From the NCBI GenBank assembly GCA_030059675.1, contig JANVYQ010000002.1, positions 32,001 to 96,000 of the forward strand: 64,000 bases of DNA, read 5' to 3'. Under the pieces are notes generated by a model. The model saw only the letters and a list, made by a program, of their open reading frames with translations, searched no databases and was not told the DNA's origin. The stretch is from Candidatus Pelearchaeum maunauluense. GTDB lineage: Archaea; Thermoproteota; Nitrososphaeria_A; Caldarchaeales; Caldarchaeaceae. A program made the translations under genes and the position numbers. Shown piece by piece: positions 3,361 through 50,578 of this stretch (positions within the stretch are counted from its first letter, which is position 1; each line of letters opens with the position of its first letter).

Positions 3361-3645
3361 TTGGTTAATTTTATTGAGGCGGGCCAGGTGTATAACAGGC
3401 TGATTAAGAGGCATGAGTTTAAGGCTGTCGTAGAGTATGAAGCAAGCCCGCCGACGCGGAAGGAGATGGCACAGGCAATAGCCCAGCGCTTCAACGTCCC
3501 AGAGAATAGGGTCGTGATAGTTAATATGCGGTGCATGTTCGGGGCTAGGAAGATGCGTGTCCATAGCCACGTATACGATAACGAGGAGGATGTGAAGAGG
3601 TTTGAGCGCGAGTATATACTGAAGAGGAATGGGCTGGTGCAGTAG
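3361..3645 (+). CDS. rps24e: 30S ribosomal protein S24e
   Basis: [23 protein letters not shown]; lies before rps27ae. Confidence 0.88.
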
Positions 3646-3647
3646 GT

Positions 3648-3809
3648 ATGGGTAAATCGGAGCTTTGGAAGAAATACGCGGTGAAGGATGGTAAGACTGA
3701 GAGGAAGCTGGTCAACTGCCCGCGCTGCGGTATAGGCTACTTCATGGCAGACCACGGAGACCGCTACGCCTGCGGTAGGTGCGGATATACGCAGTTCAAA
3801 CAGGGGTAG
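3648..3809 (+). CDS. rps27ae: 30S ribosomal protein S27ae (53 aa, not in the ORF track)
   Basis: Manual translation: [25 protein letters not shown] zinc ribbon. Confidence 0.93.
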
Positions 3810-4347
3810 CCCTAGCCAGCAACTCGCGTGCCTTCTCTCTAGTCTTCTCAGAAGCCCAAACTAGGACGCATCCCTTCTTAGGCTGGCCATAAGCCAGAAC
3901 TCCACCATCGCTTAAAGCTAGTATCGCGGGAAGTGCTAGTAGGTCTTCTTCCCCATCAACGAGGATAGCAACACTCCTACGCGCCTCAACAGCATCCATA
4001 ACCGCTTCAGCGGCTTCAGGAATTATAACACCAGCAGGATTCTTGACGTTTCTAACCTCGTATCCCCCAAGCTCATGCTTCCCGCCGAAGACACGACGCT
4101 CATATCTGCCATCTATTATTATAACGTCGGGCTTGACACCATGATTGACTAGGCTGCTGGAGGTTACATCACCTACAGCAACAACCATGGTTGGCTTGGA
4201 GCGTTTTATCTCCTCGGCAGCTCGTTTAGATGAGCTCTCCAAATCTCCCGCGATTAATGTTCCGAGGGGCTGGCGTAGTCTCTCCTTTAGCTCCTCAGAG
4301 AAGTATAAGGGCCTGCTGAAGATTTGCCTATCCGACTTTGACGGCAT
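3796..4347 (-). CDS. GTP-dependent dephospho-CoA kinase family (DUF359)
   Basis: [28 protein letters not shown] motifs; follows spt4. Confidence 0.88.
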
Positions 4348-9719: not shown

Positions 9720-9914
9720 TCAGGCCCGCCGTTCTTTCTTCCCATAGAAGGCTGTCCACTTCAGCTTTCGCGCGTCCTTGCGCTGCTCTATCATGTAAAT
9801 CCTGCATTTCCTGGAGCAGAACCAGAGCTGTGTACCATCATTCCTAACGTAGAGCATCCCCGTTCCATGCAGGAAGTCGCGGCCGCAGAAGGAGCACTTG
9901 TGGGTTGTTGGCAT
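9720..9914 (-). CDS. rpl24e: 50S ribosomal protein L24e
   Basis: [28 protein letters not shown]. Confidence 0.95.
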
Positions 9915-9937
9915 CTCCAAGACCACCATGCCAGACT

Positions 9938-10162
9938 CTACCTTATCTTCTCAGCCTCCCTCTCAGTGTCGAGCAGCATTAGGATATCGCCAACCCTCAC
10001 TGGGCCCTTCACATTCCTGGAAATCACGCGGCCCTCATCCTTGCCGCGTAGTATGCGCACCCTGACTTGCGTAACCTCGCCTGTAACGCCTGTCCTCCCC
10101 ACGACCTGCTCGACAACCGCTGGGACTGGTTCTTCAACCTTCGGGGGTGCCTTCTGGCTCAT
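9938..10162 (-). CDS. rps28e: 30S ribosomal protein S28e
   Basis: [27 protein letters not shown]. Confidence 0.96.
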
Positions 10163-37441: not shown

Positions 37442-38189
37442 GGCAGTGTCAAGTTAAGTTTTCCCATAGGGCTGGTGTAGTTCCCAGCGTTCTATGGATT
37501 CTTATGTTGTTGTAGTAGTATGTGAAGAGCGTTGGCCAGTTTTGTACATGCGTTCTGGCTCCTTGCTTGCATCTGCATGGGAAATATTTGCTGAATCTAG
37601 TTATTCGCTGTTTTAATGTTAGAAACCAGCGTTCAATGTAGTTTCTGAATCCTCCGCTTATCACTTGGTGTTTGAGCCTTAACCACTTTAGGGCTTGATG
37701 GTACCATGGCCCCCATCCGTACATACTAGTTTAGGCCTACCATAACGCTTAATAAATTCCATCATAAAGGCGTATACGCTTAGGGTGGAGCGGCTTGGAT
37801 ATAGCCTTAAAAGCAGAATACGCCTCGATTCAGGGTTTATTGTAGCATGTAAATAGACTATTTCACCACCAATGTTTATGGATGTCTCATCTAAGACTAT
37901 TATCTTAGGTTTTTTAGCCTTATCAGCCTCAAAAAGCTTTGGAGCAAACCTTTGAATCCACTTCCATATGGCGTTATGGCTACGCTTTAAGCCTTCAACC
38001 TCTGAGGCTGAAGCCTCCCGGAGCGAAAGCCCAGCAGCATGCCTCACAAGCCACTGAACAATAGCACTAGGAGAAGTTCTCCCGACGCTGAACGGCCCCC
38101 AACCTCAGCCTCCATCTGATCCAAAGCCAAATCAAGCCAAACCATAAACTGTAATATAAATAGAATAACTCTCTTGAGTTGACACTGCC
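37442..38189 (-). mobile_element. IS6-family insertion sequence (748 bp) with frameshifted DDE transposase
   Basis: Terminal inverted repeats GGCAGTGTCAA (37442) and TTGACACTGCC (ends 38189); 8-bp target duplication GAGGAGAG at 37434-37441 and 38190-38197; motifs IWKWIQRF, LDET, TDGG, RNYIERWF. Confidence 0.92.
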
Positions 38190-41351: not shown

Positions 41352-41825
41352 TTGCATTTACTCGTAGACGCCGTGAGAAAAGTACAAAACGTTGTAAACA
41401 ATGTTGTGTTACTCATCATTAGGGCTTCAAGAAAAGAAATGACCCTACATAGAAAATTTGGTATCAGTGTTGTGTTGACAGGCTATGTTCCAGAAAATGA
41501 GCAACCTCTATACTTTAGTGCTGCAGACGTCTTTGTATTTCCAAGCGACGATGATGTTGTAGGAGCGTTAGGTGCTGTAGCTAGGGTGCTATGCTATTCA
41601 AAGCCTATTATAGTAACTGATGTCCCAAGATTTTACGAGCTGAAGAGAGATGGCGTAGTAATGGTTGTGCCTAGTGGGAATGCAGAGTCACTAGCGAAAG
41701 TAGTAATGAATACACTCAACAATTTGAATGGTGTAAAAGCAGGGAAAATGCTTCAATATTGTAGGGAGAGATCTTGGAAGGTTATAGCTAGTAGGTGGCT
41801 TGAGATCATCAAGCAACTTGCTTGA
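41352..41825 (+). pseudogene. Family-4 glycosyltransferase C-terminal fragment
   Basis: ADVFVFPS, KPIIVTDV, SWKVIA; N-terminal half missing. Confidence 0.7.
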
Positions 41826-41841
41826 GGGTTGTAGGGTGGTT

Positions 41842-42353
41842 ATGGATTCTAGTGGTTTTGTTCTTAGTGTTGTTGTGCCTACGTATAATGAGAGGGAGAA
41901 TGTAGGGATCTTATAGAGAGGATTGATAGGGCTTTGAGGGTTTGTGGTGTCCCCTATGAAGTTGTTATTGTTGATGATAGCTCGCCTGATGGTACTGCTG
42001 ATTATGCTGAGGGGTTGTCTAGGATCTACCCTGTTAGGGTTGTTAGGAGGCCTGGTAAGCTGGGTCTCTCGTCAGCTGTTTTAGATGGTGTTAGGGCCTC
42101 TAGGGGTAGCGTAGTAGCTGTTATGGATGCTGACCTCCAGCACCCGCCTGAGGTTCTGCCCGCTATGCTTAAGAAGTTAATGGACTATGGATGCGATGTG
42201 GTTATAGCGTCGCACTATGTGGAGGGTGGCTCGGTGGGTAGCTGGTCCTTCCATAGGAGGTTAGTGTCTTGGGGGGCTATACTGGTGGCGAAGGTACTAC
42301 TCCCTAAGGTGAGGGGGTTAAGGACCCTATCTCAGTCCACTGCCTGGTATTGA
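41842..42353 (+). pseudogene. Polyprenol-phosphate mannosyltransferase-like GT2, frameshifted and truncated
   Basis: SVVVPTYNEREN, VDDSSPDGT, VMDADLQHPP. Confidence 0.8.
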
Positions 42354-43024
42354 CATAAATCCCTAAAGTATGCTTAACAAGCTTCGCAAAACTACTCTCC
42401 GTATATTCACCGTCTTCATCTACCCCACCAAGCACGAAGATAGAGATGTTAGACCACTTTTCCTAAGCTCTTGACAGCGTAACGTTCTCAAGGATATCAA
42501 CTTTAAGTTTCTCATGTAATTTTAACAGTAACTCAGTTGTTTTATGTAAAGGTATGATATTCTCCTTAACATAATTCTTCCATCCATCAACACTCCAATA
42601 TACAAAGTCTGATTCTTCCATCATACGACTCTTATTGAAAGCAATCATGCTAATTTATTTTAGGCTTAAAAGCGTTTTAATTAACGCTTACAAGGAATTA
42701 TTAATGTTCTACAGCCTTAAGAGACTCCCTTTCTGTCTAACCTACTGCTTAGCAGAACATCTTAAAACACCTTTTAAGGGTATCCGGAATCCTAGCTAAC
42801 ACAGGAACAAGACTCTCAGTACGCTTCCGTTTACTAGCTGACAAGCTAACGATTAATCAAGCTGGAAGAACTAAGGATTATGAAACACTAGTCAATTTAA
42901 TAAAAACTGAAAAGCATCCAGATATCTTACCATTATATACCTGCCTATTTTCATAATCCCCTTATACTAACCATTCCGAGATATTAAAGAAGATTTATAT
43001 AGACATCTTACGGATTCGGCAAAC

Positions 43025-43659
43025 ATGAGGAAATACGAGCTCCCACAGCTACCGTATTCCTACGAGGCGCTGGAGCCTTATATATCCCGCGAAATAATGA
43101 CGTTGCACCATAGCAAGCATCATCGGGCCTACGTAGACGGCGCTAATGCTGCCTTAGAGCGCCTAGAAAAGCAGCGCAGAGGAGAAAGTCAGGAGAACGT
43201 AAGAGCGATTTTGAGGGACCTTAGCTTTAATCTATCAGGCCATAAGCTGCATAGTGTATTTTGGTGTAACATGGCGCCGCAGGGCAAAGGAGGAAAACCA
43301 GGAGGAGCAATAGCAGACCAAATAAACAAAGACTTCGGCAGCTTCGAAGCATTCAAGAAACAATTCAGCGACGCAGCAAAAAACGTAGAAGCAGTAGGAT
43401 GGGCAATACTAACATACGACCAAGAATCAGACACCCTACTAATCTACCAAGTAGAAAAACAAAACTTCATGCACCCACCACACCTACCACTACTACTAAC
43501 ACTAGACGTATGGGAGCATACGAGGCTGGGCGTATTGCCCCCTCGGCTCAGGCCTACTACCTCCAGTACAAGAACGACAGAGCAAGCTACGTGGAGCAGT
43601 GGTGGAACGTGGTTAACTGGGACGATGTCGACAAACGATTCTCTAAGGCCAAAGTTTAA
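43025..43659 (+). CDS. sod: Fe/Mn superoxide dismutase, spliced model join(43025..43519,43552..43659), 200 aa
   Basis: [32 protein letters not shown] then [20 protein letters not shown] in a different frame after a 32-nt insert. Confidence 0.93.
43520..43551 (+). other. Candidate bulge-helix-bulge mRNA intron (32 nt) in sod
   Basis: GAGC/GCUC 4-bp helix flanked by 3-nt bulges AUA and AGG; cutting after the second bulge nucleotide gives CAU|GCC (His-Ala). Confidence 0.88.
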
Positions 43660-43715
43660 CTAAGTTTTCCACATAATATTTTATATCCCAAAATTATTTT
43701 GTTTTTTATAAAATA

Positions 43716-45250
43716 TAGGGAGGGGAGTGGTCGGGTATAGTAGTCTATCTGCTCAATTTATCGCTGTCTATGTGGACAATATCCATAGAATCCTTTCGCT
43801 AGGTTGCAGTTAAAGCATAGAACTTGGAATTCCTCAGGAAAGTTGTTTTTAACTATCCATTTATAAAAGTGTATTCCCCAGCCTACTTGCTTGAAATGTC
43901 GTAAACCTCCTCCGTTTACGTGGTCTATTGATAGGAATTCAAGTCTAGTCTCGCCACAACAACTACAACGTGGGACTCCCCTGCTATAATACCTGAGTAT
44001 TTCCTTTCTTTCCTCAGCTAGTCTGATAGCCACTATAGACTTATGAGGGCATTATTCCATAAAGTGCTATTGCTTTATTGCAGTTGTAGCAGAGAACTCT
44101 AAAGCCTTCAGGGAAATTGTTCTTGATGATCCAGCAATAAAACTCTGTCCCTCCCCTAATCCTATAGCGACGCTTCTGTAAACTGCCATCCTGACGTATA
44201 TGGTCAATCGAAAGGAACTCTATTCTATCCTCGCCACAACATGTAGATTTGCCACCGTAGCGTTGTATCACTAAGGATTTAATCCGTCTTCTTCGCCGTC
44301 TCTCTCTTTCTCTGCGAATTTCGCGAAGTCTATCCCGACGTCGCCAATATGATTCACACCATATCTTGCGTACTCGCTCTTTGTTTCTTTCGAAATAGCG
44401 AATCCAACGACGATGTTGTTTTATTTTCGCATCATCTAACTTAGAGGAACTACTGCTCAATGCCTCCACCTCCCTACGCCCCTAGCACCAGCTCTACGGG
44501 AGCGCCTGCTCCTAAAAATCGTAGAGCTAAGCGCCTTTGTTCTACCGCCATCCAGGGCTTGATGGCGGTCCCGCATAGGCAGGGCCTTCATACTCCCCCT
44601 TGGTAACATATTGGGGGGCGGCCCGCTTGGCCGCGAGCCCCTGCCGTGCAGAACCGCCATCAGGTCGGCGACGCTAACTGTATTCAGAAGCACTCGCCGG
44701 AACTAGCTGGCAGATGACACTCGGCAGAAGGATAGCAGTATTTCCATCACCTGTCCAGGTTCTCCTCCCGTGTCTTCTCCAGGATACCCTCTACGCTGCC
44801 CCGTTCACCGCGTGCTCCAGGCATAGTTAAGCCCTTCACCGCACGCTCCAGGAAACAGTGTAGAAGTATCCGTTCACCGAAGACATGGGAGGATATCGGC
44901 CGTCATCTAGGTTCTGCATGCGGAGTATTGGCTCCGGGCCGGAACAGCCCTAGAAGCACCCTTCACTACTTGGCTCCTGGAGTCTAGCTAAACCTCCTTT
45001 CACCACCAAGCTCCAGGCAACCCCTAGAGCTGACCAACCCTTCACCACCAATACACCCACATGCAGCTCACCCATCAGGCCGACCTCCGTGAGGCTCAGG
45101 CTAAAACTCCCTTGAACATCAGGCGGAAGCCTAAGCCCCCGAGGCTCGGCACCATAACCCGACCACCCTCCGCCCGGACTCAAATAACTATCCGGGCGTC
45201 ACCCTATTTCAGGTGAGGACAGGAAAGAGAGAGGCTGGGCCGGTCGGGCT
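43716..45250 (-). ncRNA. Candidate large structured RNA with multiple K-turn/K-loop motifs, enclosing the HNH ORF in its 3' terminal stem
   Basis: Many long GC stems whose mismatches become G-U pairs on the minus strand; repeated CCUGGAG-N-GGUGAAGG motifs; 44464-44476 pairs with 43716-43727. Confidence 0.65.
43758..44460 (-). CDS. Tandem (double) HNH endonuclease-like ORF split by a 1-nt frameshift near 44052
   Basis: Two copies of CCGE..EFLSIDH..GG..FY.WI.KNNFP..F.VLC.NCN.A...YG.CPH; removing one base joins them as CPHKSIVAIRLAEE. Confidence 0.8.
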
Positions 45251-45256
45251 ACTTAA

Positions 45257-45613
45257 CTAAACATAATATTCTATTGCTCTAACTGGTTCTAGCTTTCTTG
45301 TTATCGGATTTACTCTCAGCCCTAGAGTCTCTAACGTTGTTACGCCTATCAATGGTTTTTCGTTTTCGTCCGAGAAAGTTACTAGAACTGGTCTCCTGGT
45401 GTTGTTTATCTCTATATCCGCTAGGCCTGCGCCTCTGCTTATAACTCTTCCATCAGCAAGCTCAACCTCAACCTCGTACCTCTTCTCTATCCCAACGAGC
45501 TCGGTGACTTCCTTAGGAACCTTAGTAAAGGTCGCACCAGTATCGGCTACACCATCAAGCTCGTAAGAACACTTAGGCCCGTGTATTCTGAAGCGGACAA
45601 GCACCTCTCCCAT
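45257..45613 (-). CDS. Clan AA aspartyl protease-like protein
   Basis: ADTGAT, LADGR, PLIGVTTLETLGLRVNP. Confidence 0.88.
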   Translation of the reverse strand: MGEVLVRFRIHGPKCSYELDGVADTGATFTKVPKEVTELVGIEKRYEVEVELADGRVISRGAGLADIEINNTRRPVLVTFSDENEKPLIGVTTLETLGLRVNPITRKLEPVRAIEYYV

Positions 45614-45636
45614 GCTACCTCTCACCTATATTTTCT

Positions 45637-45987
45637 TTACATAAGAATCTCTTTAGCTTGTCTATGAAGGCCTGAACTATTTCTGTCCCTCTCCTAACGA
45701 AGTCATCGCTAAGCCAGCCTTCATAGGAGTTCGTAGAGGCTGTTAGCTACGTGAAATGCGTCTACAAGCCCTTGCTCTGGATTCTCCCTATCAAGCTGTG
45801 AGACAAATTGGAATAGGCTTGCGTGAGTCCCCAGCGATATGCCCTTAGACGCGGCGACAGCCTTAACTGCTTCAACAACGGCTAACCAAAGCTTCCCCGA
45901 CGCCTGCGCATAATCTCCATTCCTCAACATCTCCTCAGCCTCCCTGAGGAGCTTGCCGCTAAGCTTAAGACGTTCATTAACGCTCAA
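45637..45987 (-). pseudogene. PaREP1 family protein, frameshifted near 45735
   Basis: GDYAQASGKLWLA; C-terminus (YEGWLSDDFV) lies in another frame. Confidence 0.75.
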
Positions 45988-46029
45988 AGACCTTCCGAAA
46001 TCAATTTACTTAGCAACCCCTATATACAC

Positions 46030-46440
46030 ATGACGCCAGCCAAAGGCGATACGCCCACTCTTTGCATCATGCGGAGAAGAGGCAGGCCATTGATTACTGC
46101 TGTGTTAACAATAAAGCCGGGCGGAAGGCGCAGTATGCTGTAGGTCATCTAGACCCCCTCCTCAACTCCCATCACCCAGACATAGGGTCTTTTGTTTTGT
46201 CTGGGTGGGCCGGCCACTCTACCCCTCCCAGCCACCCACCCCCAGCATGGATGGCTTCTAGGGGCTATGGGCAGGCCGGACCAGCCCGCCAGGCCCATTA
46301 AGGCACGCCAATTAGGCGCCTGGGGCGGCTCTTATGAATCATCCCCGAAGAAGCCCCACCCCCTCCGTCGCCGGAGAAGGCCACGCTCAGGACCCAAGCG
46401 TGTTTAAAGGGGCTCTTAATCGGGGACTCATGGTCCCAAA
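46030..46440 (-). ncRNA. Candidate structured RNA segment
   Basis: Nested stems UCCCCGA/UCGGGGA, GAGCCCC/GGGGCUU, CCUUCUCCG-GCGA-CGGAGGGGG (GNRA loop), CACCCAGACA/UGUCUGGGUG; no credible ORF. Confidence 0.55.
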
Positions 46441-46454
46441 TGGCTCACAGACAA

Positions 46455-46610
46455 ACCTGCTTATCCAAGTAACTTGAGAAGAAACCTGACCAGAAACTTG
46501 AGAACTAACTTGAGCAGAAACCTGAAACCAGCTGAGAAGGCTGTTTAAGCAGTAAAGGTACTGGTCAAGTTTTTACTCAAGTTTCTACTCAAGTTACTTT
46601 TATAAACCAG
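46455..46610. repeat. Two oppositely oriented arrays of 12-bp units (AACTTGAG core), each ending at a TATA-like box
   Basis: Five units 46469-46528; three reverse units 46562-46597 followed by TTTTATAAACC. Confidence 0.8.
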
Positions 46611-46935
46611 TTCTCCATACGAGCCGGACACGAGTTGGTTCTTAGGCTAAATCATATAGTTTTCATGAGTGATGTTATCTTGCTTAGTAAAGAAAATATA
46701 TAGACCGCACAAAGCTTATCAGCTGATAATTTTCCTCCTTATATTAATCCTGCCCTTAAGCTATTACGCGCTTAATCTAAATGTTGTGGTCTGAGATTAG
46801 GCTAGGGTTATTATGGAAGGGCTGTCTTCTATGACGTGTAGAGCTCAATTTCGCCCCCTAAACCGAGGCAGACAATACGGTGAGCGAAGCTTATAAGACC
46901 TATAGAAATCGGATTAAGGGCGAAGAGCGATATTA

Positions 46936-47148
46936 TTATATTGTTCCGGCAGTTATTTCCGCTAACTGTTTTAGTATTCCCCTCTTCTTTGCATTCCACA
47001 CTTCTATTCCCATAACCATACCTCTATCGTCCCTCTCAACTATTATCCCATCCTCTAACTCTTCAACCGACTCAGAAGGCCCGTCCCTCAAGTGAATGTA
47101 TAGAATATCATTCTCATGATCGTAGCTAAATCTCAAGCCCTCACCCAA
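46936..47148 (-). CDS. DUF2283 family protein (putative antitoxin)
   Basis: YDHENDILYI...GIIVERD..G.VMGIEVWNA. Confidence 0.85.
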   Translation of the reverse strand: MGEGLRFSYDHENDILYIHLRDGPSESVEELEDGIIVERDDRGMVMGIEVWNAKKRGILKQLAEITAGTI

Positions 47149-47411
47149 ACACCCCTATCCACCTTTCTTCTTATAAGCTTATCTACGCTCGACGAGTAAT
47201 AAACTGTCACAATTCTCACCATATCATCCCTTCTAGTAAAGACTATTACCAACATTCTCTGCCCTATAATCCCTATAGCTACCAATGTATCAGATTCAAC
47301 GTCGCGGAATAGCATGTTAGGCCTACTAATAATTTGCAAGACGTCATTCATATCAACTCTTCTTACCCGTATCTTCTCCTCAGCATGCCTAGTTAGCTCA
47401 ATCCTAACCAA
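47133..47411 (-). CDS. DUF4258/RelE-like protein (putative toxin)
   Basis: LTRHAEEKIRVR...LVIVF..IVTVY; overlaps the DUF2283 gene. Confidence 0.8.
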   Translation of the reverse strand: MVRIELTRHAEEKIRVRRVDMNDVLQIISRPNMLFRDVESDTLVAIGIIGQRMLVIVFTRRDDMVRIVTVYYSSSVDKLIRRKVDRGVWVRA

Positions 47412-47567
47412 GCTATTAAAACAAACTTTGCCGATTAATTAAACATGCGAAGGATACTAAATTAATACCCTAGTCCTTGATTTTTAGAGTAAATAAGAGA
47501 CCTGGGTTATAAGCAAATACACCACATACGGATTAAGAGCTAACTATTAATAATTGCGTTATTCTCC

Positions 47568-47629
47568 GGCTCAAGTATCTATTCAAGTTTCTTCTCAAGT
47601 TTTTGGTCAAGTTATTTTTATAAGCAGGT
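47568..47629. repeat. Third 12-bp-period array (four TCAAGT units) followed by TTTTATAAGCAGGT
   Basis: Units at 47568, 47580, 47592 and 47604; inverted relative to 46455-46528. Confidence 0.8.
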
Positions 47630-47878
47630 ATTTTGTGTCTGTTTCTTTATATTTTTCAATGCATAGGTCTTTTAGGGGGGTACATATTAGGTAGACCATA
47701 GGCTACTTGTAGTTGTTAGCAACGTGAGAATCGTGTGAGCGAGCTTTTTATCCTTATTTAATTAATTTCCTTTAAGGGGTAAGGGGATGGGGTTTGATTG
47801 TTCTTTTTGGGTATCGAAGGCGAGAGAGTCGGGATATCCTGTGTGAGGAGGATCTTGTGTTGATTATTTGAAGGAGAG

Positions 47879-48202
47879 TTGTGTGTAAAGAAACCTTCAG
47901 AGGCAAAGGAGGAAATCGTCTATACGCCTGCACCACAGCCTACCGAAAAAGCTGTGAAGGAAAAGAAAGAAGAAAAAACTGCTTTTGAAGAATACACAAG
48001 AATATATCTTAAATTAAATGTTCCCATAGGGCAAATATCTACTATTGCCAAAATTGTAAACTACTTGAATGGCTTGTTCAAAGAATGTAAAGTGAGAATT
48101 GAGATAACTGCGCAAAACGGAAAAATTAGGGCTACTGATTACGAAAACAAAATAGAAGAAGCTCTAAGACAGGCGGGGGTTGATGTTGAAAGTAAAGAAT
48201 GA
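47879..48202 (+). pseudogene. C-terminal remnant resembling DUF499-type ATPase proteins
   Basis: VPIGQISTI...YENKIEEALRQAG terminus; no N-terminal part. Confidence 0.45.
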
Positions 48203-49431
48203 AATTGCCGCTTGCCTAACAGCAGTTGTCCGAAATTGCAGGCGACAAGCTTGTAAATGTCAAAAAGGATTTAATACGAGAAGGATATTGTCCTAAACGT
48301 GATGGGAGGCTATAAAAATGAAGGTAGTTTCATTTACTTTTTGTAGGTTCGCTTGTATATTTGCTGTATAACAAGACAATTTTAGGAAAGAATTTTACTC
48401 TATTTCCATTTAGGAAAATAATTCGTAAAAAATACTTAGAACAAATTAATAGACGATGAATGGAGAGAATAATACGAGCACGTCGCACAACAAGCGGGTA
48501 TCTGCCTTTGCTCACTTCGTTCGTTCCAAATTTGCAAGCTTTAATCAATTCTCGTGTTAGGTATATGCGTTCAGAAGACTTAAAAGCCTAATAGTCAGAT
48601 TAATACTAAAGTTAAAGCTGAGATGGTAAAATGATCAAAGTTATCAGAAAAGGTAGAGTTTTAGAGAAAGTGCTTGCAAGAACGCCAAAAGAAGCAGCCT
48701 CCAAAATCTTAGGGATTAACCCAGCTAAGCTGAAGCTCATCAAGAAAACTGAGAGGGATGACTATGTTTTGGATTCGAAGGGGAAAAATTGAAGTTTGGG
48801 AAGTTTTGCCTGCTGTGTGGGATTATGATATTGGACCAATAGCTCGATCCGTTTGACTAGAGATACCAGACCCAGAGACTAGGTCGAACCCCAAAAACCC
48901 GATCGCGTTCGTAGTTGGTGTCGTGGGTGCTCTGCTAAGAAGTATTCGGTTCCCTCCGTTTAGATTTCCTTAACAAGCTAACTACTTTACGAACTTGCTG
49001 AGGAGGATAAATGCAGACTCCAGCTTTCGATTTTGTCTGAGCATCGACCGCAGTAGGGGTGCGGGTGGAGCTGTATGCACATGGTTTGATCTTATAAGGC
49101 AATTCTTGATCACGCAATTCCGAAGAAATCGAGAAAAAATCGTGAACATAATTGCAAGTAGAATCGATGATACGGCAAAAGGAGAGCTTAGCAAGAAGCA
49201 CGAATATTCAAGGGCAAAGAACGATAAGAGAAGTGGAGGTTGTATTGAAAGATGAGATAATAGATAAGAAAGAGTATCAGGAAGACATGAGACTGAGAAG
49301 CTTAGCCCTTAATTTAAACATGGAGAAAGAGTAAAAGCCAGCGATCTTGCAGATGTTGTTCTTAAAATCATCAAGGACCCATTGAGCGATTGAACGGTGT
49401 TGTTACTGATATTGCGAGAAAGCTTGGTTAT

Positions 49432-49611
49432 ACACCTTCCACTACTACTAACACTAGACGTATGGGAGCATACGAGGCTGGGCGTATTGCCCCCTCGGCT
49501 CAGGCCTACTACCTCCAGTACAAGAACGACAGAGCAAGCTACGTTGACACTTGGTGGGTACTGGTCAACTGGGACGATGTCGACAAGCGCTTCTCCAAGG
49601 CTAAAGCCTAA
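49432..49611 (+). pseudogene. sod: Duplicated sod 3' fragment with an identical BHB intron (49472-49503)
   Basis: [13 protein letters not shown]-[32 nt][35 protein letters not shown]; no 5' part. Confidence 0.9.
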
Positions 49612-49684
49612 TTAAGTTCCCCGCACATATATTATATCCCAAATTTTATTTTTTTAAAATATAGGAAGAAGTCTTCTCACAAAT

Positions 49685-50578
49685 CTAGACAATTCCTAAT
49701 CTTTTTTCGAAGTCTTTCGCTTTCTGTTTTACTTCATAAAACTCTGTAACATCTTGCCATGATAATATGCGAAATACATGCTTTAACTCGTGAAAAGATC
49801 CTTCAATCCAACGTTTCGCTTCCTCGATTTGGTCGTTGGTAGTTACTAAAACTGGGATACTATTCCATAAATCAAATGCATGTTTTAACTTGCTCAAAGC
49901 TTCAAATATGTTTCCGCCTATTTGAACTTCAAATGCTACGCTCGGCATACTTTTCGGTGTTCTCCTCCAGATAACGTCTATTCTCTTGTTCTCTATAGTA
50001 TACTCCGTCGCAGGAAAGCGATTCTGTATTTCCCCTATTTGGTATACGATTTTCTTTATTAAATCATGATCAGGTTTTTGAACTACTATCCTTTCATTTT
50101 TAGCACGCAATATGTCAATAGTTTTCTTAACAGCATTATACTGTCCTTGGATGTTTTCATCAACAAGTATTATAGACCATCTGTCAAACTTTTGACGGAA
50201 GATCTTGATTCCTAATGAGGCTAGTTCATCTTTGCGGATGGGTTCTATGTAGTCAAGCTTTTCTCGCTGGAATTTATCTATCGGAAAAACTGGAGCTAAT
50301 TTTATTTGCCACGGATAGCCTGTTGGATTTAATTTCCAGTATCTCACCGGTTCCCTGGATTCTCTCTTCTCTAATAGGGTGCATAATATCCATATTCCTT
50401 TAACGCCTCTGTATTCCCCATAAAGCAAGATATCATCGCCAGCCTCTAACTTCATCCATTTACGTTTATTATTACCAGACCTATCATCAGGAAATCCCCA
50501 TAAACCTTCGGAGAATAAAGACTCAGCATGCGCATGGCTAAAACTCAAAATGTTAACAATGGCTGTTTGCTTATTCAA
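49685..50578 (-). CDS. EVE/PUA-like domain plus PD-(D/E)XK-like nuclease
   Basis: LWGF..KWMKLEAGDDILLY..YPWQI N-terminus; RIDVIW..AFEVQ..ALSKL C-terminus. Confidence 0.65.
   Translation of the reverse strand: MNKQTAIVNILSFSHAHAESLFSEGLWGFPDDRSGNNKRKWMKLEAGDDILLYGEYRGVKGIWILCTLLEKRESREPVRYWKLNPTGYPWQIKLAPVFPIDKFQREKLDYIEPIRKDELASLGIKIFRQKFDRWSIILVDENIQGQYNAVKKTIDILRAKNERIVVQKPDHDLIKKIVYQIGEIQNRFPATEYTIENKRIDVIWRRTPKSMPSVAFEVQIGGNIFEALSKLKHAFDLWNSIPVLVTTNDQIEEAKRWIEGSFHELKHVFRILSWQDVTEFYEVKQKAKDFEKRLGIV

Follow-up and report, generated by a model that had tools for sequence, protein, structure and literature searches.

A bulge-helix-bulge (BHB) intron in the pre-mRNA of cbf5 was reportedly described for Crenarchaeota by Watanabe in 2002. 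Crenarchaeal cbf5 pre-mRNA introns of this type were also treated by Yokobori (2009; PMC2738675). In Haloferax volcanii, HVO_1309 carries a 46-nt BHB intron in its 5' UTR, which is released as a circle (Schwarz 2020, PMC7714728; PMC10485636) and whose cleavage was verified both in vitro and by circRNA-seq (PMC7714728; PMC10485636). In the reviews consulted, cbf5 and the HVO_1309 leader are the only two archaeal mRNAs listed as processed by the tRNA-splicing endonuclease (PMC10485636), and one of these reviews considers that more such mRNAs are probably still undiscovered.

The hot-vent archaeon Candidatus Pelearchaeum maunauluense has a single superoxide dismutase (sod) gene of the Fe/Mn type, with a 32-nt insert directly after the codon of the metal-binding His. 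The gene lies in the window analysed here, a stretch of 64,000 nucleotides (contig JANVYQ010000002.1, positions 32,001 to 96,000). A preliminary description had proposed a BHB intron in this gene and had given cbf5 as the established mRNA case, with none known in sod; a full-text literature search indeed found no report of a BHB intron in superoxide dismutase, but the 5' UTR intron of HVO_1309 has to be added to that background.

The sod intron resembles that of cbf5 in being a short BHB in a coding region, located next to or within the codon of a catalytic residue and breaking the frame; in both cases the hosts have a hetero-oligomeric EndA, the splicing endonuclease, and the distribution is patchy, with intron-less relatives. 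It differs in residing in an oxidative-stress enzyme rather than an RNA-modification enzyme, and in the Caldarchaeales/Aigarchaeota lineage rather than in crenarchaea; moreover, cbf5 splicing has been demonstrated experimentally, whereas sod splicing is predicted from sequence. The HVO_1309 intron, like the one predicted in sod, is a small EndA substrate that belongs to an mRNA rather than to a tRNA or rRNA, but it lies in an untranslated leader, where no frame needs to be restored, and belongs to a euryarchaeon with an alpha2 enzyme. Archaeal pre-tRNA introns, several of which are present in this genome, share the motif and the cut rule with sod; the host RNA of the sod intron, however, is an mRNA without a tRNA body. 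The eukaryotic XBP1 intron is 26 nt long and switches the frame. As in HAC1/XBP1, splicing of sod would concern a very short mRNA intron, use a protein endonuclease and an RtcB-type ligase (tRNA ligase/RtcB) and change the frame of the 3' part. Endonuclease and recognition structure are different, however, and the eukaryotic event (for IRE1 splicing, see PMC13149111) is a regulated stress switch, whereas there is no evidence of regulation for sod.

The sod gene and its bulge-helix-bulge motif

Features of the sod locus, in window coordinates
Feature	Coordinates	Strand	Remarks
TATA-box-like element TTTATATA	42994-43001	+	some 27 nt before the ATG; read by eye
sod exon 1	43025-43519	+	165 codons, the last of ...DVWEH, CAT for the metal-ligand His; from ORF and Pfam
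Complete hBHBh' motif	43508-43557	+	cuts predicted at 43519/43520 and 43551/43552
sod intron, BHB, 32 nt	43520-43551	+	missing from 28/28 intron-less relatives
sod exon 2	43552-43659	+	35 aa; coding 43552-43656, stop 43657-43659
HNH-endonuclease-like ORF, 91 aa	43758-44033	-	PHROG 2255, 3.9e-5; convergent with sod, about 100 nt from the sod stop; possibly associated
Second tandem HNH-endonuclease-like ORF, 142 aa	44041-44469	-	PHROG 2255, 1.2e-4; possibly associated
Truncated second sod copy	49432-49625	+	194 nt: 40 nt of the exon 1 end, identical intron (49472-49503), diverged exon 2

Both domains of the SOD family (PF00081 and PF02777), the N-terminal hairpin domain and the C-terminal domain, are found at the locus. 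Exon 1 matches Sod_Fe_N at 1e-31 and Sod_Fe_C at 4e-18, the latter match stopping at profile position 73 of 102. The D-x-W-E-H-A-Y-Y motif, in which we take the Asp and the His of DVWEH to be SOD metal ligands, is interrupted in the DNA and becomes contiguous once the 32 nt are removed: exon 1 closes with GACGTATGGGAGCAT (ending at 43519), the insert reads ACGAGGCTGGGCGTATTGCCCCCTCGGCTCAG, and with GCCTACTACCTCCAGTAC onward AYYLQYKN... restarts at 43552 in a different frame. Sequence and ORF frames bear out the preliminary description on this split of DVWEH-AYY, as they do on the frame shift that unspliced RNA would undergo directly after the metal-ligand His; the resulting read-through ORF (43025-43663) has 212 aa, and the exon 2 peptide is not in its frame. 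The predicted spliced SOD has 200 aa, 165 from exon 1 and 35 from exon 2. The exon 2 peptide is 69-97% identical to the C-termini of relatives, and a search of the protein database with the tail of the unspliced ORF (residues 163-212) gave nothing at E<=1 and hence no further carriers. The element TTTATATA is likely the promoter of an mRNA that is leaderless or has a short leader; the congeneric genome G001 has TTTATAA at the aligned position, its remaining upstream DNA being unalignable.

In the transcript, the exons would pair with each other in a weak outer helix h (GUAUGG 43508-13 with CCUAC 43553-57), composed of 2 bp (GG/CC), one bulged U and 3 bp (GUA/UAC). The central helix (GAGC 43514-17 with GCUC 43546-49) has 4 bp, all of them Watson-Crick, and is accompanied by two bulges of 3 nt each on opposite strands, AUA at 43518-20 and AGG at 43550-52. 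Within the intron follow the inner helix h' of 5 bp (CGAGG 43521-25 with CCUCG 43541-45) and a hairpin (GGGC 43528-31, loop GUAUU, GCCC 43537-40). Read from 5' to 3', the intron consists of 1 nt of the 5' bulge, the inner helix, a CU bulge, the GGGC-GUAUU-GCCC hairpin, the returning inner helix, the 3' strand of the central helix and 2 nt of the 3' bulge. Every structural element named in the preliminary description, from the exon stem and the bulges to the 4-bp helix and the hairpins, could be placed. The energy of the BHB structure is -21.2 kcal/mol versus -21.5 kcal/mol for the minimum free energy (MFE) fold (43500-43562, 37 °C), and at 75 °C the MFE fold includes the central and inner helices together with the 5' bulge. 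Folded without constraint, a stretch of 81 nt does not stand out by its MFE (z = -1.16).

Under the rule that EndA cuts behind the second nucleotide of a bulge (AU^A and AG^G), exactly the 32 nt that the relatives lack would be excised; the predicted cuts coincide with the homology borders to the base and restore the 200-aa frame, as had been claimed. All 28 intron-less sod loci examined in relatives have an unbroken ...TGGGA(G/A)CA(C/T)|GC(N)TA(C/T)TA(C/T), and one metagenome contig joins 43519 directly to 43552. If the border is moved by one base to either side, the His or the Ala codon is lost. BHBs of this quality (a central helix of 4 pairs, no fewer than 2 outer and 5 inner pairs, G-U allowed) occur in the genome at 10,169 of 4.25e8 site-by-length combinations, a frequency of 2.4e-5 per fixed site and length; for the sod insert, homology fixes both independently. 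An Rfam search over the window gave no match at the gathering threshold, either to self-splicing group I/II introns or to other curated RNAs, and at E<=1 two miRNA-like noise matches elsewhere in 42800-50000 were the only result. A tRNA-Thr at 44568-44667 that was called by ARAGORN in its intron mode is a long hairpin, unconfirmed by default ARAGORN and by Rfam, and was discarded.

Splicing machinery and other introns of the genome

The genome encodes the enzymes that would be needed. Two EndA genes (PF01974, tRNA_int_endo; 98.5 and 65.3 bits) are located on contigs C16 (region 3642-3899) and C10 (region 9779-10036), and an RtcB gene (PF01139, 576 bits) on C20. For Aigarchaeota, the EndA type is reported as (alpha-beta)2 (PMC5829648). 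The same cut rule can be followed in the organism's own cbf5, where 23 nt at C9:2441-2463 interrupt the gene: application of the rule yields GTL-D-PAVSGVLP, restoring the GTLDP motif with the catalytic Asp codon split as G|AT. This site is that of the published crenarchaeal cbf5 intron (PMC2738675), and cbf5 introns extend into Caldarchaeales, with split matches in 36/41 genomes, a range far wider than that of the sod intron, which was found in 1 of 10 genera sampled. The BHB of sod, with its perfect 4-bp central helix and 5-bp inner helix, is stricter than that of this cbf5, whose inner helix is irregular and whose motif includes two G-U pairs. For four tRNA introns (Tyr, 58 nt; Pro, 18 nt; Tyr, 16 nt; Asn, 66 nt), the intron lengths from the BHB scan equal those given by ARAGORN.

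Scanning the whole genome for BHBs in combination with ORFs yielded 35,818 motifs, among which gene boundaries dominate; sod and cbf5 were both recovered. No new mRNA intron was found in this non-exhaustive screen, in which the 10 best short candidates were assessed, 5 by Pfam and 5 by eye. The candidate at C6:3111-3160 lies in a frameshifted permease in which profile positions 45-61 are missing, and that at C2:225328-225347 is a T-run frameshift, at which relatives encode 10 residues. The candidates on C3, C14 and C20 proved by Pfam to be adjacent or unrelated genes; the remaining 5 were judged, by eye only, to be adjacent genes.

We read the 32-nt insert as a real EndA/RtcB-spliced intron in the coding region of an mRNA, and assign this reading a probability of about 0.8. 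Established for it are the structure, the fit between cuts and homology borders, the enzymes, the fact that two further lineages retain the insert, and the purifying selection seen on each exon (see below); cleavage, ligation and their efficiency are what we infer from these. Counted against it are the weak outer helix, the unexceptional unconstrained fold, the lack of a compensatory double substitution among the paired bases, and the fact that only 3 loop changes separate the close copies. The mosaic identity of the gene, its degraded surroundings and the intron-less allele of a metagenome, all described below, weigh on the same side. In the proposed sequence of events, exon GAGC (from the Glu-His codons) would pair with intron GCUC to form the central helix, an (alpha-beta)2-type EndA would cut each bulge behind its second nucleotide, and RtcB would ligate ...GAG CAU to GCC UAC..., giving DVWEH-AYYLQYK and a complete SOD. 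The intron would be set free, probably in circular form, and the peptide DVWEHAYYLQYK would be the mark of the spliced product.

Conservation of the insert and alternative explanations

An insert at the same codon is present in G001, with 2/32 changes, 43526 C>T in the CU bulge and 43532 G>A in the loop. It recurs with a third change, 43536 T>C in the loop, in an independent metagenome contig, X1 (121 nt, depth 21). All three substitutions (3/3) in the three variants fall on the 7 internal unpaired bases, and paired bases are unchanged, so that no covariation is seen. The check proposed earlier, alignment of relatives for inserts at this codon with covarying pairs, has accordingly come out in part: the inserts exist in G001 and X1, but no pair has changed. 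The exon bases that take part in pairing (GTA, GAG, GCC and TAC) are pairing-competent in all intron-bearing alleles, and the same combination occurs in only 4/28 intron-less ones. A further metagenome contig, X4, has an allele without the intron whose sequence just upstream is 98% identical, so that the intron is either of recent date or, as far as the DNA is concerned, not needed; this metagenome comparison comprised partial contigs only, from four DNA runs and mainly from other lineages. Among sequencing runs recorded as RNA, none was found to contain the locus. The single match of the pattern scan to metagenome contigs was a chance hit in AT-rich non-sod DNA.

A GTDB-wide pattern scan for inserts of 12-42 nt between the WEH and AYYLQ codons, blind to other insert lengths, other codons and other codon spellings, gave 96 loci. 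By tblastn, sod is present in two of these (L112 and L103) and the insert in L112 alone, which is the G001 locus itself (identical sequence and coordinates) and was counted once; the rest were chance matches. As for a source of the intron, blastn-short in this genome and a pattern search with 3 mismatches in 41 genomes, this one and 40 relatives, returned sod copies only, so that no donor tRNA intron was identified.

The 32-mer occurs in two exact copies in the assembly (at 43520 and 49472), and none of 100 shuffles matched. The second copy, 6 kb away, is 89% identical to sod overall and fully identical over its first ~112 nt; it is best read as a 3' gene fragment, since it is without the body of exon 1. 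The preliminary description had taken the identical double occurrence to make a read error unlikely; the two exact copies stand, but the second lies in a truncated fragment and not in a second sod gene.

Along the gene, the identity between this genome and G001 is mosaic, 74% in 43025-43287, 95% in 43288-43578 and 86% in 43579-43656, from which we conclude that recombination has happened. This touches on the explanation that the intron and the flanking exon DNA are an integration or recombination core at the sod 3' end, or an interrupted HNH target. Either variant is compatible with splicing, and from either a duplicated 3' fragment and a mosaic gene would follow, as would the identical core shared by the two copies before they diverge and the identity block around the intron. 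Directly downstream of sod lie the two HNH-like ORFs, 52% identical to each other, and their family is present in 2/21 genomes (n=2 only), each time ~100-120 nt downstream of sod. In the second of these genomes, G002, there is an additional sod 3' fragment; its HNH copy is degraded, however, and stands next to an intron-less sod. In G001 no HNH was found, though the contig stops at sod. The assignments to HNH are weak, with E about 1e-4 to 1e-5 and PHROGs as their only source, Pfam and NCBIfam giving no match; the one relative of the ORFs found elsewhere, in an Anaerolineales MAG, adjoins an integrase-like ORF and no sod. Neither an integrase nor a recombinase was found between the two sod 3' ends, for which reason we rejected a reading of these as att sites of an integrative element. 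The BHB geometry, finally, is left unexplained by mobile DNA alone, and we regard this explanation as unlikely.

In a related and equally tentative proposal, the sod intron would be a horizontally mobile BHB intron, moving with a few hundred bp of conserved exon among Caldarchaeales by homologous recombination, possibly driven by the HNH, whose target the intron would shield; mosaic genes and displaced sod 3' ends would follow from it. A mobile sod intron with a free-standing HNH would be the archaeal counterpart of the 'collaborative homing' of phages. As in that system, the endonuclease gene is sporadic and always adjoins sod, its presumed target, in two genomes only and with a weak HNH assignment. 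If true, this would mean DNA-level mobility for protein-spliced BHB introns, and would explain why the cbf5 and sod introns are located exactly at catalytic-residue codons.

That sod is instead a dead gene, with the 32 nt a recent inactivating insertion (for instance a hairpin or a tRNA-type intron gone astray) that is left unspliced or spliced too rarely, making it a young pseudogene in both congeners, we consider improbable. The surroundings would suit it: sod lies in a decayed island of low GC, among truncated glycosyltransferase genes, IS remnants and the truncated sod duplicate, and pseudogenes are frequent in such places. Other genes of the assembly have plain frameshifts, close relatives have the intron-less allele, and with 5 differences in 221 nt around the intron (43358-43578) the time for decay may have been short. 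A random insertion, however, would yield such a BHB at the exact homology borders at a frequency of only ~2e-5, and all 3 intron changes spare the paired bases. Between this genome and G001, the exon-1 block adjoining the intron (43288-43519) shows 12 nucleotide differences, all synonymous, and 0 amino-acid changes, and exon 2 in its spliced frame (35 codons) shows 9 synonymous differences and a single amino-acid change. For exon 2, pS is 0.486 and pN 0.023 (pN/pS ~0.05) in the spliced frame, as compared to 0.075 and 0.115 in the read-through frame. No further stops or frameshifts were found in sod of either genome. The marks of a pseudogene, relaxed constraint and further disabling mutations, are therefore not seen, although recombination weakens this test, and the selection recorded in the exon-2 tail may partly date from before the intron reached one of the lineages. 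Each of the two genomes has this sod as its only copy, in an order in which 39/41 genomes have a sod match, and cbf5 in the same genome depends on the same mechanism.

Translational recoding, in which the ribosome would bypass or frameshift over the 32 nt of an unspliced RNA, would account for exon 2 being clearly read in a frame that requires 3n+2 nt to be skipped. We give it very little credence, because the take-off and landing codons are unmatched and the take-off is without a stop codon (CAT|ACG ... CAG|GCC), a single frameshift would place 10-11 foreign residues within the metal-binding motif, as is seen in no relative, and recoding does not require the BHB to fit the exact borders. An assembly or sequencing artefact, conceivable in a draft genome of 21 contigs with at least one homopolymer-type frameshift elsewhere, can be practically discounted, as the insert is present twice in the assembly, in G001 with 2 differences and in the independent-run contig at depth 21.

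Implications for archaeal mRNA splicing

The mechanism proposed for sod, BHB splicing, is a known one, and sod is an additional case of it. If spliced, it would be the second case of a BHB in a coding region after cbf5. It would also be the first example from an enzyme of metabolism or stress defence, and the searches brought up no earlier report for sod. Its confinement to one genus, with intron-less alleles nearby, would, if real, indicate that such introns are still being gained, and the gain, spread and loss of introns in archaeal protein genes would then be directly testable. Most likely, the cell has to splice its sod mRNA in order to make SOD. Annotation pipelines will call the gene a frameshifted pseudogene, with the consequence that these organisms would wrongly be inferred to lack SOD.

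The split sod gene and the fold of its insert

One gene for an Fe/Mn superoxide dismutase is encoded in the window, and it is the only copy in the source genome (G000; 1.79 Mb on 21 contigs, 94% complete). A Pfam profile search identifies Sod_Fe_N (1e-31) and Sod_Fe_C (4e-18) in exon 1, the latter match breaking off at profile position 73 of 102. Read without splicing, the ORF has 212 aa, with 47 unrelated codons past exon 1. The ORFs in two frames agree with the split of DVWEH-AYY and the frame shift after the histidine that the preliminary description had reported.

Every element of the tRNA-type bulge-helix-bulge (BHB) fold that this description proposed was found again: the outer, central and inner helices, both bulges and the terminal hairpin. 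Scored as given, the structure reaches −21.2 kcal/mol versus −21.5 for the unconstrained optimum (43500-43562, 37 °C); when the temperature is set to 75 °C, the central helix, 5′ bulge and inner helices all belong to the optimum of the same segment. The unconstrained fold of the wider 81 nt is ordinary (z = −1.16), so that thermodynamics alone could not single out the sod site. The main argument for a putative BHB intron is instead its position, with site and length preset by homology. If each bulge is cut behind its second base, the rule invoked for the splicing endonuclease EndA, 43520-43551 would be excised, precisely the segment marked as additional by homology, and a shift of the borders by one base either way breaks the His or the Ala codon. 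When G-U is allowed and 4 central, ≥2 outer and ≥5 inner pairs are required, G000 contains 10,169 such BHBs among roughly 4.25e8 combinations of site and length, a frequency of 2.4e-5. Judged from sequence, the insert is probably a BHB intron of the sod mRNA, as had been proposed; we put the probability at about 0.8.

Features of the sod locus, its surroundings and the cbf5 gene (window positions unless a contig or locus is named)
Feature	Position	Strand	Remarks
sod exon 1	43025-43519	+	frame ends ...GAC GTA TGG GAG CAT (DVWEH)
32-nt insert	43520-43551	+	ACGAGGCTGGGCGTATTGCCCCCTCGGCTCAG; directly after CAT codon
sod exon 2	from 43552, stop 43657-43659	+	35 residues, frame other than exon 1
Outer helix	43508-13 with 43553-57	+	GUAUGG with CCUAC; 2 bp, one bulged U, 3 bp
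Central helix	43514-17 with 43546-49	+	GAGC with GCUC; 4 bp
Bulges	43518-20, 43550-52	+	AUA, AGG; opposite strands
Inner helix	within insert		CGAGG with CCUCG
Terminal hairpin	within insert		GGGC-GUAUU-GCCC
sod fragment	49432-49625		194 nt; last 40 nt of exon 1, intron, complete diverged exon 2 (ends KAKA)
HNH-endonuclease-like ORF	43758-44033	-	PHROG 2255, E 4e-5; HNH-like family
Second, tandem HNH-endonuclease-like ORF	44041-44469	-	PHROG 2255, E 1e-4; HNH-like family
HNH-like family locus in G002	L010:2224-2361
IS-type transposase fragments	37449-38047		low-GC island
Truncated glycosyltransferase genes	41352-42353		low-GC island
Clan-AA aspartic-protease-like ORF	45257-45625		low-GC island
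BrnT/DUF4258 toxin-like ORF	47133-47411		low-GC island
Split cbf5	G000:C9:1683-2656 (L133/L134)	-	outside window; 23-nt BHB insert C9:2441-2463

Distribution of the insert and selection on the encoded protein

A sod match is present in 39 of the 41 genomes of the order, G000 included. Among the 29 relatives with fetched loci (nine further genomes with a sod match lie outside this count), the junction is contiguous in 28 (...GAG/GAA CAC/CAT followed by GCN TAY TAY...); the sole carrier is the congeneric genome G001, where 32 nt are inserted at the same codon. The insert is restricted to one of ten genera sampled. When 185,579 species genomes were scanned for a pattern with any insert of 12-42 nt between the two junction codons, 96 loci emerged, two of them containing sod and only one with the insert (L112), which was counted once because its sequence and coordinates are the same as those of the G001 locus; the scan of metagenome contigs for the insert gave a chance match only. 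The genus Pelearchaeum belongs to Caldarchaeales, formerly Aigarchaeota, and the available portion of PMC10547907 mentions no intron.

Two substitutions mark the G001 insert: C>T at 43526, within the CU bulge, and G>A at 43532, the first base of the loop. Contigs from four metagenome DNA runs include X1 (121 nt, depth 21), whose insert has T>C at 43536, the final base of the loop. All three known substitutions fall within the 7 internal unpaired bases. The alignment of relatives proposed earlier recovers the insert at the same codon in G001 and yields no covarying pairs, since no base pair is altered. In X4 (463 nt, same four runs), 43519 is joined directly to 43552; the 105 nt upstream differ at 2 positions and the 119 nt downstream at 17. 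X4 is a closely related intron-less DNA allele, and several other metagenome contigs represent intron-less sod of more distant lineages. Since the insert occurs in G000, G001 and X1, three lineages at least carry it as genuine DNA.

Between G000 and G001, pS and pN are 0.563 and 0.053 for exon 1, 0.486 and 0.023 for exon 2 in the spliced frame (one V/I difference in 35 residues), and 0.075 and 0.115 for exon 2 in the read-through frame; neither gene contains a further stop or frameshift. Nucleotide identity is 74% over 43025-43287, 95% over 43288-43578 and 86% over 43579-43656 (block versus flanks, Fisher test p = 2e-11), with only 5 differences in 43358-43578. This mosaic points to movement of the intron-bearing block between lineages by recombination, and the exon-2 tail may partly have evolved in an intron-less setting. 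Divergence is similar for the intron (2/32) and the exon block contiguous with it (12/232), and all 12 exon differences are silent, an AGC/TCA serine switch among them, which argues that the protein has been under selection with the intron in place. Codons of the block 43288-43578 end almost only in A or C, and metagenome contigs from four runs start aligning exactly at 43288; the block looks like a recombination tract or a case of nucleotide-level constraint.

These data also bear on the rival readings (ALTERNATIVES). That sod is a young pseudogene is unlikely: this reading suits the degraded island and the recent spread, but it does not account for a BHB placed exactly at the borders, for the purely silent substitutions, or for two genomes in which this gene is the only sod. 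Bypass or frameshifting during translation is highly improbable, as the take-off codon, landing codon and stop codon to be expected are missing, and after a frameshift the metal-binding motif would contain foreign residues. An artefact of assembly or sequencing retains next to no probability, its exclusion following from the insert DNA in three independent sources, which upholds the earlier argument against a read error; a self-splicing intron finds no Rfam match.

The second copy and the surroundings of sod

The exact 32-mer occurs twice in the window (43520 and 49472; no matches in 100 shuffles), as first described, with the qualification that the second copy sits in a sod fragment lacking the exon-1 body. 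This fragment, identical to the gene over its first ~112 nt and diverged over the remainder, is a relic. No integrase was found between the two copies.

About 100 nt past the sod stop lie two tandem HNH-like ORFs, convergent with sod and without a Pfam or NCBIfam match. Their family occurs in 2 of 21 genomes searched, G000 and G002, both times right behind sod; the G002 copy, degraded by four stops, follows an intron-less sod. Outside sod, the G001 contig has no nucleotide match in G000, indicating variable surroundings. The sod 3′ end may, these patterns suggest, be a recombination hot spot, perhaps targeted by a free-standing homing endonuclease. Another genus provides a second displaced sod 3′ end: G002 has, away from its sod gene, a stray fragment of 16 codons (L173, G002:C18, 972-1021). 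In the species-genome collection, a single distant relative of the HNH ORF was found (L174:1-700, Anaerolineales MAG, 48% identity); it directly follows the 3′ end of an ORF resembling a tyrosine recombinase, a position that suggests a mobile-element context. The gene sod itself lies in a low-GC island (~32000-55000; 37-47% versus ~53% for the genome). A 78-aa ORF contains, or runs antisense to, a long GC-rich hairpin at 44558-44664; a tRNA-Thr call there was rejected as an ARAGORN intron-mode miscall, Rfam giving only miRNA-like noise (E 0.6).

Probable BHB splicing in the same genome

G000 encodes two tRNA_int_endo proteins and the ligase RtcB; for Aigarchaeota, the available text of PMC5829648 reports an (alpha-beta)2 endonuclease type. 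BHB scan and ARAGORN agree on intron length for four tRNA genes (Tyr 58, Pro 18, Tyr 16, Asn 66 nt) among 19 ARAGORN intron calls, many of which look unreliable. A genome-wide screen combining BHB and ORFs recovered sod and cbf5, and the ten best other short candidates were discarded as gene boundaries or plain frameshifts. Two plain frameshifts, which may be sequencing errors or real decay, affect a LivM-type branched-chain amino-acid permease (L146/L147, G000:C6:2823-3886), whose pieces lack Pfam profile positions 45-61 between them, and a T2SSE/PilB-type ATPase (L152/L153/L158, G000:C2:225108-225904), whose T-run differs in length from intact orthologues.

We found no report of a sod BHB intron in open-access papers and bioRxiv full text, where superoxide dismutase together with bulge-helix-bulge retrieved unrelated papers only and the literature on other archaeal mRNA introns gave none either. 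The earlier naming of cbf5 as the established case holds with one addition: in the passages available, cbf5 is the only coding-region BHB case and the HVO_1309 5′ UTR the only other mRNA substrate (PMC7714728, PMC10485636, PMC12397907). One of these speaks of two or more genes in archaea, with others yet to be found (PMC10485636), and introns in other protein genes were, according to the portion available of an older paper, predicted and at that time unconfirmed (PMC2738675).

The cbf5 gene of G000 is likewise in two pieces in different frames. The BHB around its insert has an outer helix of 7-9 bp, CUCU/GGGG as central helix and AGA and AAA as bulges; cuts by the second-bulge-base rule give ...GHGGTL-D-PAVSGVLP... 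and divide the codon of the catalytic Asp as G|AT. The site is the same as in Desulfurococcales and Sulfolobales and matches the crenarchaeal position given in the available part of PMC2738675. CBF5-model matches are split near position 70 in 36 of the 41 genomes of the order and contiguous in G033, G037 and G039, as well as, with one TAG, in G004; G012 has a single match, at a contig start. On this comparative evidence, the known range of the cbf5 intron would extend to Caldarchaeales.
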